Made by a program: the position numbers and the translations under genes. A stretch of 64,000 nucleotides of DNA from Candidatus Altiarchaeia archaeon (GTDB lineage Archaea; Altiarchaeota; Altiarchaeia; IMC4; QMZM01), in contig JBAQYF010000031.1 of NCBI GenBank assembly GCA_049299895.1, forward strand, positions 96,644 through 160,643, read 5' to 3'. The notes beneath the pieces were generated by a model. That model was not told where the DNA came from. It saw only the letters and a program-made list of their open reading frames with translations, and ran no database searches. The first letter of the stretch is position 1. Each line of letters starts with the position of its first letter. This document shows positions 2 to 5,975 of the stretch, in pieces.

Positions 2-775
2 AGCACGTATCAGATCCTGATAGAGAAAACAGATTTCCTGAAACATGATTTCCCAAGCATCCGATATTTCACCCAGGCAGGAGGAAAGCTCTCGAACAAA
101 TTCATATCAGAGATCGCAGATGCATTCCCGGATAAAGAAGTATACATCATGTACGGCGCGACCGAAGCAACGGCCCGCCTCTCATATCTCCTGCCGGAAA
201 TGCTCAGAAAAAAGCTCGGCTCCATCGGAAAAGGCATACCCGGAGTGACCCTGCAAGTAGTCGACGCAAACGGATCGCAGGTTAAGCCGGGGGTAGTAGG
301 AGAGATCATTGCGATAGGGGACAACATCATGAAGGGGTACTATAAGGACCCCGAACTCACGAAAAAGACGATCAAAAACGGAGCCCTGTACACCGGAGAC
401 CTTGCCGTGGTCGACGAGGACGGCTACATATACACAGTGGGCAGGTCCAGCAACATCATAAAATCTGCGGGCTACCGGATATCGCCCACAGAGATCGAAG
501 AAGAGATAAACAAGCTGGAAGGAGTCATCGATTGCGTCGCCTTCGGGTTTCCGGACAGCATAATGGGCGAATGCGTGACCGCGGCGGTCCTGACAAAGAA
601 CGCATCCAGTGAGTTAAAGGAGACTATCCTGCTTCACTGCAAAAAGACCTTTCCGTCGCATAAGGTCCCAAAACACATAGTCTTCATGGAGGAATTCCCG
701 CTCAACTCCTCAGGCAAGACAAACAGCCAGAAGATAAAAGAAACCGCGAAAGAGAGGATAGAAAAAGAATCATAG
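2..775 (+). CDS. Acyl-CoA synthetase / AMP-dependent ligase, 5'-truncated at the window edge (C-terminal ~258 aa)
   Basis: The frame is open from position 2. 'YGATE' and 'GYRISPTEIE' are AMP-binding family motifs, and the C-terminal 'GKTNSQKI' region is typical of adenylate-forming enzymes. TAG stop at 773-775. Confidence 0.75.
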   Translation, partial: STYQILIEKTDFLKHDFPSIRYFTQAGGKLSNKFISEIADAFPDKEVYIMYGATEATARLSYLLPEMLRKKLGSIGKGIPGVTLQVVDANGSQVKPGVVGEIIAIGDNIMKGYYKDPELTKKTIKNGALYTGDLAVVDEDGYIYTVGRSSNIIKSAGYRISPTEIEEEINKLEGVIDCVAFGFPDSIMGECVTAAVLTKNASSELKETILLHCKKTFPSHKVPKHIVFMEEFPLNSSGKTNSQKIKETAKERIEKES

Positions 776-788
776 AGCACCCAAAGAT

Positions 789-1946
789 ATGCCAAAGAGC
801 ACTGAAGACACGGGGGCAGCTCCCGGCGAGAAAACCCACCATGTATCAGTCTCCTTAGAGGAAATTCTGAAACTAAAGCAGTACTCCATCCCTGATGAGG
901 AGAAGAACCGCATGCTGCTTGTGAACATAAAAGAGCAGCTTCTTTGCGCAAAAGAAAACAGGCATATAAAGAGCTTCTTTGAAAAACAGGGAATCGACAT
1001 AAGCTCGATCAATAAGCTGGAGGATGTGCCGACGATACCGGTGCAGATGTTCAAATATTTCGACCTCAGGATAGGCACCCCTGAGAGCATAGTCAAAGTC
1101 CTCAAGTCCAGCGGCACGACAAGCGGATTACCCAGCAGGGTCCCCCTGAGCAAGAAGACGACCATGAACCAGACAAAGGCCCTGAATTCCATCTTATCAG
1201 ATTATCTTGGCAACAAGAGAAGGTTGTTTCTCGTAATAGACCATGAAGGAATCAATGCGCCCAATTCGGAAATCACCGCAAGGACCGCGGGGGTGCGCGG
1301 CCTTTCCATATTCTCAAAAAAGATAATCTACCTCCTAAAGGAAGTAGACGGAAAACTCGTATTGAACATGCCGGCAATAGAGGACCTGATCCAGAACCAC
1401 AAAGATGAAGAGGTCTACGTCTTCGGCTTCACCTATATAGTATGGTCTGTCTTCTGCAGGCAGGCAAAGGAGCAGCTAAAGGGCAGACCGTTCAATTTCC
1501 GCGAGGCGATAATATTCCACAGCGGCGGATGGAAGAAACTCGAAGAAGAAAAGGTCTCAAAAGAGGTGTTCTCGGAAGAGATCGCAAAAATATTCGGAAC
1601 AGACCCAAAAAAAGTCCACGACTTCTATGGAATGGCGGAACAGACGGGGATAATATTCGTAGACTGCGAACACGGAAACAAGCACGTACCGAACTTTGCG
1701 CAGGTGATAATACGCGACATACAGACGCTTAAGCCTTGCGAGATAAATGAGACGGGCCTAATCGAGGTCATGAGCATCCTTGCTGACAGCTATTATTGCC
1801 AGGCGATATTGACCGAGGACAAAGGATTCCTCGCAGGCATAGATGATTGCCCGTGCAAAAGAAAGGGCAGGTATTTCCGGTTCAAATCAAGGGTCGAGAA
1901 GGTAGAGATGCGGGGCTGCGGAGACACCTTCAAGGAGAAAACATGA
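789..1946 (+). CDS. LuxE-like acyl-protein synthetase
   Basis: Motifs line up with Vibrio LuxE: SSGTTSG vs TSSGTNG, SGGWKK vs GGGWK, 'VDCEHGNKHVPNF' vs 'FEDEMQRKHVPPW', and a C-terminal 'GCGDTF' vs 'GCALSL'. Size is about 385 aa. Confidence 0.8.
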   Translation: MPKSTEDTGAAPGEKTHHVSVSLEEILKLKQYSIPDEEKNRMLLVNIKEQLLCAKENRHIKSFFEKQGIDISSINKLEDVPTIPVQMFKYFDLRIGTPESIVKVLKSSGTTSGLPSRVPLSKKTTMNQTKALNSILSDYLGNKRRLFLVIDHEGINAPNSEITARTAGVRGLSIFSKKIIYLLKEVDGKLVLNMPAIEDLIQNHKDEEVYVFGFTYIVWSVFCRQAKEQLKGRPFNFREAIIFHSGGWKKLEEEKVSKEVFSEEIAKIFGTDPKKVHDFYGMAEQTGIIFVDCEHGNKHVPNFAQVIIRDIQTLKPCEINETGLIEVMSILADSYYCQAILTEDKGFLAGIDDCPCKRKGRYFRFKSRVEKVEMRGCGDTFKEKT

Positions 1947-4097: not shown

Positions 4098-4110
4098 CGG
4101 ACAAAAAAAG

Positions 4111-4818
4111 ATGACACCCGAAGAATTAAGAAAACAGGTCCATACGCTTTTCCACAAATACAAGTATGAAAACAACGATGACGGCCACCTGGACATACCG
4201 ATCAGGGACACGAAAGGAAATATAGTGGGACACATGAGCCCATGCCAGGCCAAAGAGGTGATGGATACATCTAAGCTAATACCCCTCTTTGCGCAGTGGA
4301 GGAACGAGAACAACTACGCGTTCGCGTCGCAACCGAAAGCAACACCCGAGGGGACTTCAAAGTGGTACGACAACTATCTGATAAACTTGGACGACCGTAT
4401 CCTTTTCATAATCAAGACGATCGACGGCGAACCCATCGGCCACATGGGCCTCTGGACATTCGATTATGAGAAGAAGACCTGCGAGATAGACAACCTGATA
4501 AAGGGGAAGAAGAACCCTCTTCCAGGCCTGATAATGTTCTTTGCTGCAAAGGCGCTAATGGAATGGACCTACGCAAACATCGGGGTAGAGAGCCTTGGAG
4601 GGAGGATGCTGAAAGACAACAGGGCCGCAATAACCTTCTGGGAGAGGCTAGGATTCACAGTCATAGGAGAGATACCCCTCGCAAAGATCCAGGATCCCAA
4701 TGTTACAGGCTGGGAAGAGCTTAATCCTGGAGACACGAGGAAGCCGGACAGATACGAGGTCGTAACTACTGATAGAAAGGATATCTACGAAAAGAACATA
4801 GCAAAGCAAAAACAATGA
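4111..4818 (+). CDS. GNAT-family N-acyltransferase
   Basis: The C-terminal 'NRAAITFWERLGF' acyl-CoA N-acyltransferase motif. 235 aa. Confidence 0.6.
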   Translation: MTPEELRKQVHTLFHKYKYENNDDGHLDIPIRDTKGNIVGHMSPCQAKEVMDTSKLIPLFAQWRNENNYAFASQPKATPEGTSKWYDNYLINLDDRILFIIKTIDGEPIGHMGLWTFDYEKKTCEIDNLIKGKKNPLPGLIMFFAAKALMEWTYANIGVESLGGRMLKDNRAAITFWERLGFTVIGEIPLAKIQDPNVTGWEELNPGDTRKPDRYEVVTTDRKDIYEKNIAKQKQ

Positions 4819-5975
4819 AACTCTCAGTCAGCGCACGCTCAAAGGAGATCGTGCAATCGGAAATCAGGACTATGTCGATAGAATGCGACAAGGTTAATGG
4901 GATTAACCTTTCACAGGGAGTGTGCGACCTGGACCTTCCATTGCCCGTGAAGATGGGGGCAAAAGAGGCGATGGATGCAGGCATAAACCACTACACGAGA
5001 TACGACGGCCTGCCGGAGCTAAGAAACGCGATAGCTTCAAAGATGCGCAAATACAACAATATCGAATCCGACCCGGAAAAAAACATCATAGTCTCCTGCG
5101 GAGCGACCGGCGCATTCTACTCGGCATGCCTCGCCCTCTTGAACCCCGGAGACGAGGTCATCATCTTTGAGCCGTACTATGGATACCACATAAACACCCT
5201 CCTTGCGACACAGGCAAGACCCGTTTACGTCAGAATGAGCCCGCCGGACTGGTCATTCAACATGGAGGACCTTGAGCGCGCGGTTACTCCGAAGACGAAA
5301 GGCATAATGATCAACACCCCTGCAAACCCGTCGGGGAAGGTATTCACAAAAAAAGAGCTGAAGCTGCTTGCCGATTTTGCGATAAAACACGACATCTTCA
5401 TTTTCACAGATGAGATATACGAGTACTTCATCTACGCGGGAGCAAAGCACATAAGCCCAGGATCGCTCCAAGAGATAAAGGACCGGACCATAACGATCTC
5501 AGGGTATTCCAAGACCTTCAGCATAACGGGATGGCGCATAGGCTACTGCGTATGCGACGAAAAGTGGGCCCAGATGATAGGGTACATAAGCGACCTTGTC
5601 TACGTCTGCGGACCGGCCCCTTTGCAGGTAGGCGTTGCAAGAGGGATCGAAAAGCTCCCGGACAGTTTCTATAAAGCCCTGTGCGATGAGTATGCAGCAA
5701 AAAGGGAGATTATCTGTTCGGCACTGGAGGGTTCAGGTCTTACTCCATACGTCCCGCAGGGGGCATATTATGTGCTCGCAGACGTAAGTGCTATTCCAGG
5801 GAAAACAAGCAAGGATAAGGCGATGCACCTCCTGAAAAAGACTGGCGTCGCAAGCGTGCCAGGCGAAGCGTTCTATCACGACGATGGAGGAGAGAATCTC
5901 GTAAGGTTCTGTTTTGCCAAAAAAGATAGCGAACTAAACGAAGCCTGCAACAGGCTCCTAAAATTAAAGCAATGA
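4815..5975 (+). CDS. PLP-dependent aminotransferase, class I/II (AspAT/DapL-like)
   Basis: 'SGYSKTFSITGWRIGY' contains the PLP-lysine context. 386 aa. The ATGA start overlaps the upstream stop. Confidence 0.8.
   Translation: MKLSVSARSKEIVQSEIRTMSIECDKVNGINLSQGVCDLDLPLPVKMGAKEAMDAGINHYTRYDGLPELRNAIASKMRKYNNIESDPEKNIIVSCGATGAFYSACLALLNPGDEVIIFEPYYGYHINTLLATQARPVYVRMSPPDWSFNMEDLERAVTPKTKGIMINTPANPSGKVFTKKELKLLADFAIKHDIFIFTDEIYEYFIYAGAKHISPGSLQEIKDRTITISGYSKTFSITGWRIGYCVCDEKWAQMIGYISDLVYVCGPAPLQVGVARGIEKLPDSFYKALCDEYAAKREIICSALEGSGLTPYVPQGAYYVLADVSAIPGKTSKDKAMHLLKKTGVASVPGEAFYHDDGGENLVRFCFAKKDSELNEACNRLLKLKQ

Follow-up and report, generated by a model that had tools for sequence, protein, structure and literature searches.

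Among the described systems built on LuxE and LuxC proteins, the closest in protein family is the fatty acid reductase of the lux operon. In the Photobacterium phosphoreum enzymes, K238 and R355 of LuxE (PpLuxE) are essential and C364, carried by a flexible C-terminal tail, accepts the acyl group; LuxC (PpLuxC) is itself acylated on a cysteine and has a 40-Å cleft for a C14 chain, and its substitutions S166F and H442R abolish activity on myristate (PMC9157457). A LuxE-LuxC pair of another kind is encoded near the start of the 64,000-nucleotide stretch of DNA analysed here as a whole and called the window (Candidatus Altiarchaeia archaeon, assembly GCA_049299895.1, contig JBAQYF010000031.1, positions 96,644 to 160,643 of the forward strand). 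With high confidence, the window locus belongs to a type of gene cassette in which LuxE and LuxC are accompanied by an acyl carrier protein (ACP), a phosphopantetheinyl transferase (PPTase), an AMP-forming ligase and an alcohol-forming enzyme, here a short-chain dehydrogenase/reductase (SDR). The reading preferred here, to which a probability of about 0.55 is given, is that this cassette would reduce the free carboxyl of a short dicarboxylate and so deliver a hydroxyacyl-ACP that N-acylates an amino sugar of a surface glycan.

Two bacterial gene sets of the same kind have been described in glycan loci. In Vibrio cholerae O1, tetronate N-acylates the perosamine of the O antigen, and wbeL, which encodes an ATP-binding domain, is required for the O antigen (PMC3441752); wbeM encodes an iron alcohol dehydrogenase, and mutations in the tetronate gene set lead to resistance to O1-dependent phages (PMC9915646). 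Like the window locus, this set (rfbK-L-M-N-O, or wbeK-O, for the 3-deoxy-L-glycero-tetronyl, that is 2,4-dihydroxybutanoyl, N-acyl group of perosamine) couples the LuxE and LuxC functions and combines them with an AMP-ligase-type protein (WbeL) and an alcohol-forming enzyme inside a glycan cluster. Reportedly (Morona et al. 1995), RfbK is an ACP and RfbO an acyltransferase. The two loci also differ: V. cholerae has LuxE and LuxC fused in RfbN, an iron-containing alcohol dehydrogenase (Fe-ADH) and GDP-perosamine, whereas the locus here has separate, coupled genes, a FabG-like SDR, a cytidine diphosphate (CDP)-based sugar, a PPTase fused to the ACP and, as neighbouring acyltransferase, a GNAT protein rather than a hexapeptide enzyme. 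The likeness is one of gene content. By name, the two are linked only through the NCBI label 'acyl protein synthase/acyl-CoA reductase RfbN' on the Methanospirillum hungatei JF-1 homolog, which is 52% identical to the window LuxC. No V. cholerae name occurs among the cluster members of the LuxE-LuxC fusion proteins of 800-830 amino acids (aa) described below, which have the same length as V. cholerae RfbN.

The second gene set occurs in the flagellin glycosylation islands of Aeromonas group II and many Enterobacteriaceae, which contain an ACP, a 3-oxoacyl-ACP reductase, an AMP-dependent synthetase, luxE and luxC, and for which their authors guessed a lipid component (PMC7874193; PMC4875605). 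These islands share with the locus here five protein families, including the FabG-type reductase, a glycan locus, and adjoining pse-type aminotransferase and GNAT genes, the likeness being by protein family. They differ in that the glycans are O-linked and based on pseudaminic acid, that no PPTase is reported and that the order is ACP, FabG, ligase, LuxE, LuxC. The flagellin glycan of Aeromonas AH-3, which comes from an island with this gene set, contains a 376.14-Da pseudaminic acid derivative and an unknown 102-Da unit. By mass arithmetic (Pse5Ac7Ac, 316.127 - 42.011 + 102.032 = 376.148), C4H6O3, a dihydroxybutanoyl group of 102.03, fits both masses. The combination of an adenylating enzyme, a carrier and a reductase also recalls the carboxylic acid reductases, single polypeptides of adenylation, carrier and reductase domains that need a PPTase and convert carboxylates into aldehydes through a thioester at the expense of ATP and NAD(P)H. 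Their R domain is of the SDR type, unrelated to LuxC with its aldehyde dehydrogenase (ALDH) fold, and their carrier holds the carboxyl that is being reduced, unlike the ACP of the present cassette, which would carry the opposite end.

A preliminary description of the window, made from its sequence, had suggested that it may hold an undescribed sugar or lipid decoration pathway. The gene set is widespread and already annotated in V. cholerae O-antigen loci and in flagellin islands. What is modestly new here is the archaeal breadth of the cassette, which extends to cultured methanogens and Asgard archaea, its built-in PPTase, and convergent hints of distal-carboxyl reduction.

LuxE, LuxC and the cassette around them

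Both window proteins fall well within their families. LuxE scores 170 bits against PF04443 (cut-off 24.9) and covers profile positions 31-389 of 391, and LuxC scores 199 bits against PF05893 (cut-off 21). Among solved structures, only the two chains of the P. phosphoreum LuxC-LuxE complex 7xc6 are matched by sequence (LuxE against 7xc6_E, E 8.5e-20; LuxC against 7xc6_A, E 3.8e-16). Residues K249, R368 and C377 of the window LuxE align with PpLuxE K238, R355 and C364, and C263 of the window LuxC aligns with the acylated catalytic cysteine. Only eight residues follow the LuxE cysteine, a short tail standing in place of the C-terminal subdomain of ANL enzymes, and the tail motif RGCGD is retained even in an 825-aa LuxE-LuxC fusion. 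An AlphaFold model of LuxC, built from a 12-sequence alignment and used for fold ranking only, not for the pocket (predicted local distance difference test score, pLDDT, 69.8; predicted template modelling score, pTM, 0.53), has 7xc6_A as its best Foldseek match (E 3e-13), ahead of ordinary aldehyde dehydrogenases, with 19% identity in the structural alignment. By these matches the pair is assigned to the true LuxE and LuxC families and not to generic ALDH or PaaK paralogs. The motif-by-motif match with Vibrio LuxE and LuxC claimed earlier thus stands at the level of the family and of the catalytic residues, which are kept, but the wording was generous for a LuxC of 19% identity.

Membership of the families does not make the pair a lux-type reductase. 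Because the scores against the NCBIfam lux equivalogs NF052251 and NF052244 lie far below both cut-offs (LuxE 67.7 bits against 550, LuxC 101.6 against 750), the window proteins are classed as not orthologous to the lux-operon fatty acid reductase. An exact look-up of the LuxE sequence retrieved a contig, L001, which is identical to the window where the two overlap and reaches 9.2 kb further upstream. The Pfam and NCBIfam assignments of ten genes upstream on this contig and ten genes downstream include no luciferase or LuxD-type hydrolase. The window and lux systems thus share both protein families, the Lys/Arg pair and swinging C-terminal cysteine of LuxE, the acylated cysteine of LuxC and tight coupling of the two proteins. 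The lux system has LuxD and LuxAB, whereas the window locus is without them, lies in a glycan cluster, includes an ACP and a second adenylating enzyme, and encodes a LuxC that is 48 residues shorter and has no distal cleft segment.

The genes named in the preliminary description are all present on the + strand, as open reading frame (ORF) calls and Pfam assignments confirm, including the LuxE-LuxC pair behind an AMP-ligase and inside an archaeal glycan cluster (see the table). The translational-coupling overlap of LuxE and LuxC was likewise read directly in the sequence; the LuxC start that it implies is backed by homologs with the common N-terminus MI(T/K)CHLL, and the same 4-nt overlap is found in 23 adjacent pairs among the fetched loci. 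The upstream extension on L001 completes the picture. The predicted functional unit is a six-gene carrier-protein cassette consisting of PPTase and ACP (fused here), AMP ligase, LuxE, LuxC and SDR, whose downstream two-thirds fall inside the window. The archaeal clade brings its own PPTase, because most archaea are without ACP and its synthase (PMC3533463).

The full-length ligase has a nonribosomal peptide synthetase (NRPS) A domain as its best PDB match, followed by oxalate-CoA ligase and malonyl-CoA synthetase (184 bits); among fatty-acyl-CoA synthetases, the score is 152 bits for FadD13 and 125-137 bits for long-chain enzymes. Ser stands in place of the Asp with which NRPS A domains bind the alpha-amino group, and the loading of an amino acid by an NRPS-like A domain was rejected on this ground. 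Orthologs of the ligase (41-62% identity) lie 5' of LuxE, -2.5 to -3.8 kb from LuxC, in most loci of clades A and B defined below. The SDR reaches 278 bits against TIGR01830, the 3-oxoacyl-ACP reductase model (cut-off 298), and an ortholog lies 3' of LuxC in most clade A loci.

Relatives of the window LuxC are numerous. A word-indexed search gave 303 at E <= 1e-10, the best of which are archaeal with 50-67% identity (Thermoplasmata, Methanosphaerula, Methanoculleus, Methanofollis, Methanogenium, Methanoregula and M. hungatei JF-1). An exhaustive profile-free search at the same threshold gave 910 clusters (50% identity), many of them LuxE-LuxC fusions of 800-830 aa. Metagenomic bacteria, Flavobacteriales for instance, often have them, and one occurs in Nanohaloarchaea (L043:4491-6953); in this protein and in P0145, P0151, P0181-P0183 and P0186, single proteins of 800-830 aa, LuxE comes first and RGCGD is kept at the junction. 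From a scan of one genome per species, 80 loci were compared gene by gene and fall into three clades.

Clade A, which includes the window (LuxC identity 41-65%), comprises Methanomicrobiales, Methanohalophilus, Thermoplasmata, Woesearchaeota and three bacterial metagenome-assembled genomes (MAGs). Wherever a locus extends far enough upstream, it shows the order PPTase, ACP, ligase, LuxE, LuxC, mostly followed by the SDR; its holders include M. hungatei JF-1, Methanosphaerula, Methanogenium, Methanohalophilus, a Thermoplasmata MAG and Woesearchaeota. Of the 27 clade A loci, 16 have glycan genes of at least two kinds within 10 kb, and hexapeptide acyltransferases are common. On the bacterial MAG contigs L007 (KSB1), L008 (unclassified bacterium) and L024 (Omnitrophota), too, the cassette of archaeal type is complete with its PPTase.

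Clade B (31-41% identity) groups Asgard archaea, about 22 species of Clostridium and related genera, Calditrichaceae, Bacteroidetes and one Nanohaloarchaeon, with ACP, ligase, LuxE and LuxC and usually no adjacent AcpS-type PPTase. All seven Asgard loci (L034, L045, L049, L050, L058, L059, L062) have the order ACP, ligase, Fe-ADH, LuxE, LuxC, in which the Fe-ADH, placed between ligase and LuxE, takes the place of the SDR; content and order are those of V. cholerae rfbK-N. In most of them an Sfp-type PPTase, a hexapeptide acyltransferase or a DegT protein is encoded nearby. Among the carriers are the cultured strains Promethearchaeum syntrophicum MK-D1 and Lokiarchaeum ossiferum; an initiating glycosyltransferase is additionally encoded in the locus of MK-D1. 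Clade C (23-28% identity; various bacteria, L067-L083) has LuxE and a LuxC of about 900 aa, without ACP or ligase; this LuxC has 360-480 extra residues past the catalytic domain.

Neighbor-joining trees of LuxC and LuxE, which carry no support values, come from pattern-biased sampling and are not used for the deep branching order, agree with each other and put the window pair among the archaeal members of clade A. Two bacterial MAGs are nested in the archaeal clade in both trees, which may reflect either transfer from archaea to bacteria or mis-binning. In composition, the cassette genes (GC 0.48-0.50; GC at third codon positions, GC3, 0.59-0.64; codon-usage distance 0.15-0.20) are within the range of the other genes of the window.

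Reduction of a distal carboxyl as the proposed chemistry

The first argument comes from the enzymes that activate carboxyl groups. Two such ATP-dependent enzymes, the ligase and LuxE, both look intact, and the simplest reading is therefore that they would act on one molecule with two carboxyls. The acid-CoA ligases of known structure that come closest to the ligase, the oxalate and malonate enzymes, are consistent with an acid of this kind.

A second argument comes from the LuxC cleft. The window protein ends 17 residues past the WD motif and, in the alignment, all ACP-linked LuxCs end 17-25 residues past it; they are without the C-terminal segment (about 33 aa with respect to the window protein) that bears PpLuxC T465, I472, L478 and F483 at the far end of the cleft. 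Nearer the entry, R72, L121, F124 and W411 of the window protein stand where PpLuxC has S118, S166, T169 and H442. A basic residue at 72 (Arg or Lys), Leu121, an aromatic residue at 124 (Phe or Tyr) and Trp411 are common to all ACP-linked LuxCs. The carrier-less clade C proteins have a PpLuxC-like cleft, with His at the W411 position and small residues at 72 and 121. As far as the alignment allows, the cleft of the ACP-linked proteins appears to fit a short polar substrate better than a fatty acid.

A third argument is provided by the bacterial neighbourhoods of clade B. In 16 of the 22 Clostridia loci, ACP, ligase, LuxE and LuxC are followed by genes for a sigma-54 activator, 4-hydroxybutyryl-CoA dehydratase, a NifU-like protein and 4-hydroxybutyrate CoA-transferase. 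The Clostridium dehydratase scores 814 bits against 1u8v and the CoA-transferase 594 bits against 3eh7. Taking L036:7392-18140 as an example of the Clostridium loci (L027-L063), the sigma-54 activator recurs in 21 of 21 other loci, and the dehydratase, the NifU-like protein and the CoA-transferase each in 15-16 of 21. This arrangement fits a link of the Clostridium cassette to C4 semialdehyde or hydroxy-acid chemistry, and suggests that a C4 acid is turned into 4-hydroxybutyrate by an ATP-dependent route not yet described. A link between LuxC and the 4-hydroxybutyrate pathway was not found in the literature searched.

The analysis shows to which families the proteins belong, that their catalytic residues are kept, how the genes are ordered, how far this order is conserved and where the cassette occurs; from these we infer the substrate class, the order of the steps, the acceptor and the product as follows. 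The PPTase would convert the ACP to its holo form, and the AMP-ligase would adenylate a short (C3-C4) dicarboxylic or hydroxy-dicarboxylic acid and load one of its carboxyls onto this ACP. LuxE would adenylate the other, free carboxyl and take it onto Cys377, whose tail would pass the acyl group to Cys263 of LuxC. There the thioester would be reduced to an aldehyde with NAD(P)H, and the SDR (Fe-ADH in Asgard archaea) would convert the aldehyde into an alcohol. The order may vary, in that the free acid could be reduced first and loaded later without a change in the net chemistry. Either way an omega-hydroxyacyl-ACP would result, for example of the 4-hydroxybutanoyl, 2,4-dihydroxybutanoyl or 3-hydroxypropanoyl type. 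The adjacent GNAT here, and hexapeptide acyltransferases in other archaea, would move its acyl group onto the amino group of a nucleotide-activated sugar that neighbouring genes supply, and the sugar would decorate a surface glycan.

The identity of the acceptor and of the transferase is addressed by the genes that follow the SDR. DegT and RfbH are the probable makers of the amino sugar that would receive the acyl group, and the GNAT is, from its position and family, the best local candidate for the transfer. A search for homologs of this GNAT gave only three relatives, which adjoin an aminotransferase, DegT and RfbH both with the cassette (L086, in the order LuxC, SDR, PPTase, then GNAT, aminotransferase, DegT, RfbH) and without it (ENA contig ERZ1426824). 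Among the other fetched loci with LuxC homologs, L086 is the only one in which the GNAT and the class I aminotransferase lie beside the cassette. The usual cassette neighbour in other archaeal loci is a hexapeptide acyltransferase. ERZ1426824 has the same CDP-sugar genes and the same GNAT-aminotransferase-DegT-RfbH block but no Lux cassette; a split transketolase occupies the place of the entire block that runs here from the thiamine pyrophosphate (TPP) enzyme to the SDR. From this comparison, the cassette is a swappable module in a sugar operon, and the aminotransferase is part of the sugar block.

Several observations weigh against the dicarboxylate reading. The ligase matches the oxalate and malonate enzymes by only about 30 bits more than FadD13, and its top match remains an NRPS A domain. 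The cleft mapping rests on an alignment of about 20% identity and on a mediocre model (pLDDT 69.8). Being FabG-like, the SDR could act just as well on a 3-oxoacyl-ACP of different origin. The GNAT follows the DegT/RfbH block in its distribution, not the cassette. A glycan context (at least two kinds of glycan genes) is absent from all 22 Clostridia loci, so that the product need not end on a sugar. As for the comparisons with bacteria, the fit of C4H6O3 to the Aeromonas masses is not unique, and the origin of tetronate from malate is a proposal reportedly made by Morona et al. in 1995. The literature searched contains no biochemistry and no archaeal description of the cassette, but annotation-level mentions only.

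Competing explanations

The ligase, the carrier and the reductase could also work as a chain-release system. In that case the ligase would load a monocarboxylic acid on the ACP, LuxC would release it as an aldehyde or alcohol, and LuxE would either shuttle the acyl group between ACP and LuxC or activate a second acid. The LuxC of the lux system takes acyl-CoA as well as acyl-LuxE, so that other thioester donors are possible (PMC9157457). The architecture is like that of the carboxylic acid reductases, and in this one locus the aldehyde could feed the neighbouring aminotransferase. Such a scheme is nevertheless unlikely: LuxE retains the Lys/Arg pair for adenylation, which a mere shuttle would not need, what recurs beside the cassette is an acyltransferase and an alcohol-forming SDR or Fe-ADH, not an enzyme that consumes aldehydes, and a released product would require no dedicated acyltransferase.

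The preliminary description favoured fatty-acyl chemistry. On that account LuxE would activate a medium- or long-chain acid and LuxC would reduce it to a fatty aldehyde, which would then be aminated or attached as a lipidated or alkylated sugar. It draws on the LuxE and LuxC families and their intact catalytic residues, on the many NCBIfam matches of the ligase that are named fatty-acid-CoA ligases, and on the lipid component suggested for the same gene set in flagellin islands (PMC7874193; PMC4875605). Most of the evidence points elsewhere, and a fatty-acid reductase is decidedly improbable. Both proteins score far below the lux equivalog cut-offs, and the annotated and scanned genes here and in the inspected neighbourhoods include no ketosynthase, dehydratase, enoyl reductase, LuxD or luciferase. 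A separate ligase and an ACP would be redundant for a single fatty acid. Among acid-CoA ligases, the oxalate and malonate enzymes lie nearest to the ligase, LuxC is without the distal C14 cleft and has bulkier, basic residues at the entry, the Clostridium cassettes adjoin 4-hydroxybutyrate genes, and the only product tied to genes of this kind is a C4 acid.

The fatty amine once envisaged from the aldehyde and the aminotransferase fares no better. The best NCBIfam models for this aminotransferase are transaminases of alpha-amino acids and 2-oxo acids. Aldehydes are usually aminated by class III aminotransferases. As the ERZ1426824 contig indicates, the GNAT and the aminotransferase travel with DegT and RfbH even where LuxC and the rest of the cassette are absent, which makes the proposal weak.

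It might also be supposed that the cassette serves central or fermentative metabolism by reducing a C4 acid, as in Clostridium, and that its position among glycan genes is a coincidence. The 4-hydroxybutyrate genes beside the Clostridium homologs and the lack of glycan-rich surroundings in the 22 Clostridia loci speak for such a role. It is very unlikely for the window, since the window clade is a different one, has its own PPTase and SDR and lies on the same strand within glycan clusters in 16 of 27 loci, and since related contigs exchange the cassette block for a transketolase module in the same sugar operon.

Least probable of all is a recent horizontal acquisition of a foreign lipid pathway from bacteria, for which the preliminary description had proposed phylogeny and comparisons of GC and codon usage as checks: although more distant relatives are bacterial and archaeal ACP machinery has been attributed to transfer from bacteria (PMC3533463), the top matches are archaeal at 50-67% identity, the pair nests in an archaeal clade whose two bacterial MAGs suggest export from archaea or mis-binned contigs, and the cassette genes do not stand out from the other genes of the window in GC, GC3 or codon usage. 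A transfer long ago, from or to bacteria, is conceivable.

Neighbouring genes and significance

Features of the locus, in window coordinates or, where so marked, in coordinates of the overlapping contig L001 (PLP, pyridoxal phosphate)
Feature	Coordinates	Strand	Evidence or remark
AMP-binding ligase, C-terminal 257 aa, 5' end cut by window start	2-775	+	PF00501 E 5e-20; PF13193 E 5e-14
LuxE-family acyl-protein synthetase, 385 aa	789-1946	+	PF04443 E 8.9e-50
LuxC-family thioester reductase, 429 aa, ALDH fold	1943-3232	+	PF05893 E 1.2e-58
Overlap of LuxE stop and LuxC start, 4 nt ATGA, aaaacATGAtaaag	1943-1946	+	direct sequence reading
FabG-like SDR, 246 aa	3357-4097	+	adh_short_C2 E 3e-67
GNAT, 235 aa	4111-4818	+	Acetyltransf_3 E 8e-10; PseH E 2e-5
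Class I/II PLP aminotransferase, 386 aa	4815-5975	+	Aminotran_1_2 E 1.6e-65
DegT-family sugar aminotransferase	6009-7121	+	DegT E 1e-109
RfbH-type CDP-4-keto-6-deoxyhexose 3-dehydrase	7121-8443	+	NF011936, 710 bits against cut-off 423
Glycosyltransferases (GT10-like, two GT2, GT4) and flippase			downstream of RfbH
PPTase (ACPS) and ACP (PP-binding) fusion, 224 aa, attachment Ser motif WDSLK	L001:7811-8485		directly before the ligase
Full-length AMP-forming ligase, 498 aa	L001:8491-9987		C-terminus is window 2-775
Glucose-1-phosphate cytidylyltransferase	within L001:1143-7833		350 bits against cut-off 300; upstream
CDP-glucose 4,6-dehydratase-like gene	within L001:1143-7833		upstream
Acetolactate-synthase-like TPP enzyme	within L001:1143-7833		upstream
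Acylating acetaldehyde dehydrogenase	within L001:1143-7833		upstream
4-Hydroxy-2-oxovalerate aldolase	within L001:1143-7833		upstream
A further sugar SDR	on L001		upstream

The upstream genes of L001, together with RfbH, look like what we take to be a CDP-3,6-dideoxyhexose route with a two-carbon branch, similar to that of yersiniose. The TPP enzyme, DmpF and DmpG were considered as suppliers of the acid and rejected, as no other locus has them conserved alongside the cassette. A role in the sugar pathway is more likely for them, because a transketolase holds the corresponding position on the sister contig ERZ1426824.

Other features were recorded along the window. The GT10-like gene (fucosyltransferase C-terminal domain) at 8528-9568 has no NCBIfam match, and its GC of 0.41, compared with about 0.48-0.50, is the lowest in the cluster. 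Directly 3' of the glycan cluster, 14431-15720 encodes a 3-hexulose-6-phosphate synthase fused to an RraA-like domain, and SepRS, which marks the host as an archaeon, is encoded at 51819-53378. Two giant ORFs, at 53451-58874 (1807 aa) and 31904-38506 (2200 aa), have no Pfam match at E <= 1e-3; the first lies within an extreme purine skew of the + strand (AT skew 0.61-0.67 and GC skew 0.19-0.23 at 54-58 kb). An Rfam scan of the whole window gave no match.

Beyond the window, a wider proposal can be put forward tentatively, at somewhat less than even odds. The LuxE-LuxC pairs linked to an ACP and an AMP-ligase may form a distinct, biochemically undescribed system that reduces the distal carboxyl of a carrier-tethered C3-C4 dicarboxylate, and would not be fatty-acid reductases. 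The archaeal version, with its own PPTase, would supply hydroxyacyl decorations to the surface glycans of methanogens, Thermoplasmata and Asgard archaea, and the same chemistry might explain the tetronate of V. cholerae O1, the 102-Da unit of Aeromonas and an ATP-driven route to 4-hydroxybutyrate in Clostridium.

The locus is no pointer to fatty-acid lipid chemistry in archaea. It would rather give a concrete role to some of the rare archaeal ACP and PPTase genes, and it offers compact, thermostable or anaerobe-derived versions of these enzymes for work on their mechanism. Both the O1 antigen of V. cholerae and the flagellin glycans of several pathogens are made in part by this gene set. For the archaea themselves, the preferred reading predicts an unusual acyl substituent on surface glycans, which could be sought by mass spectrometry.

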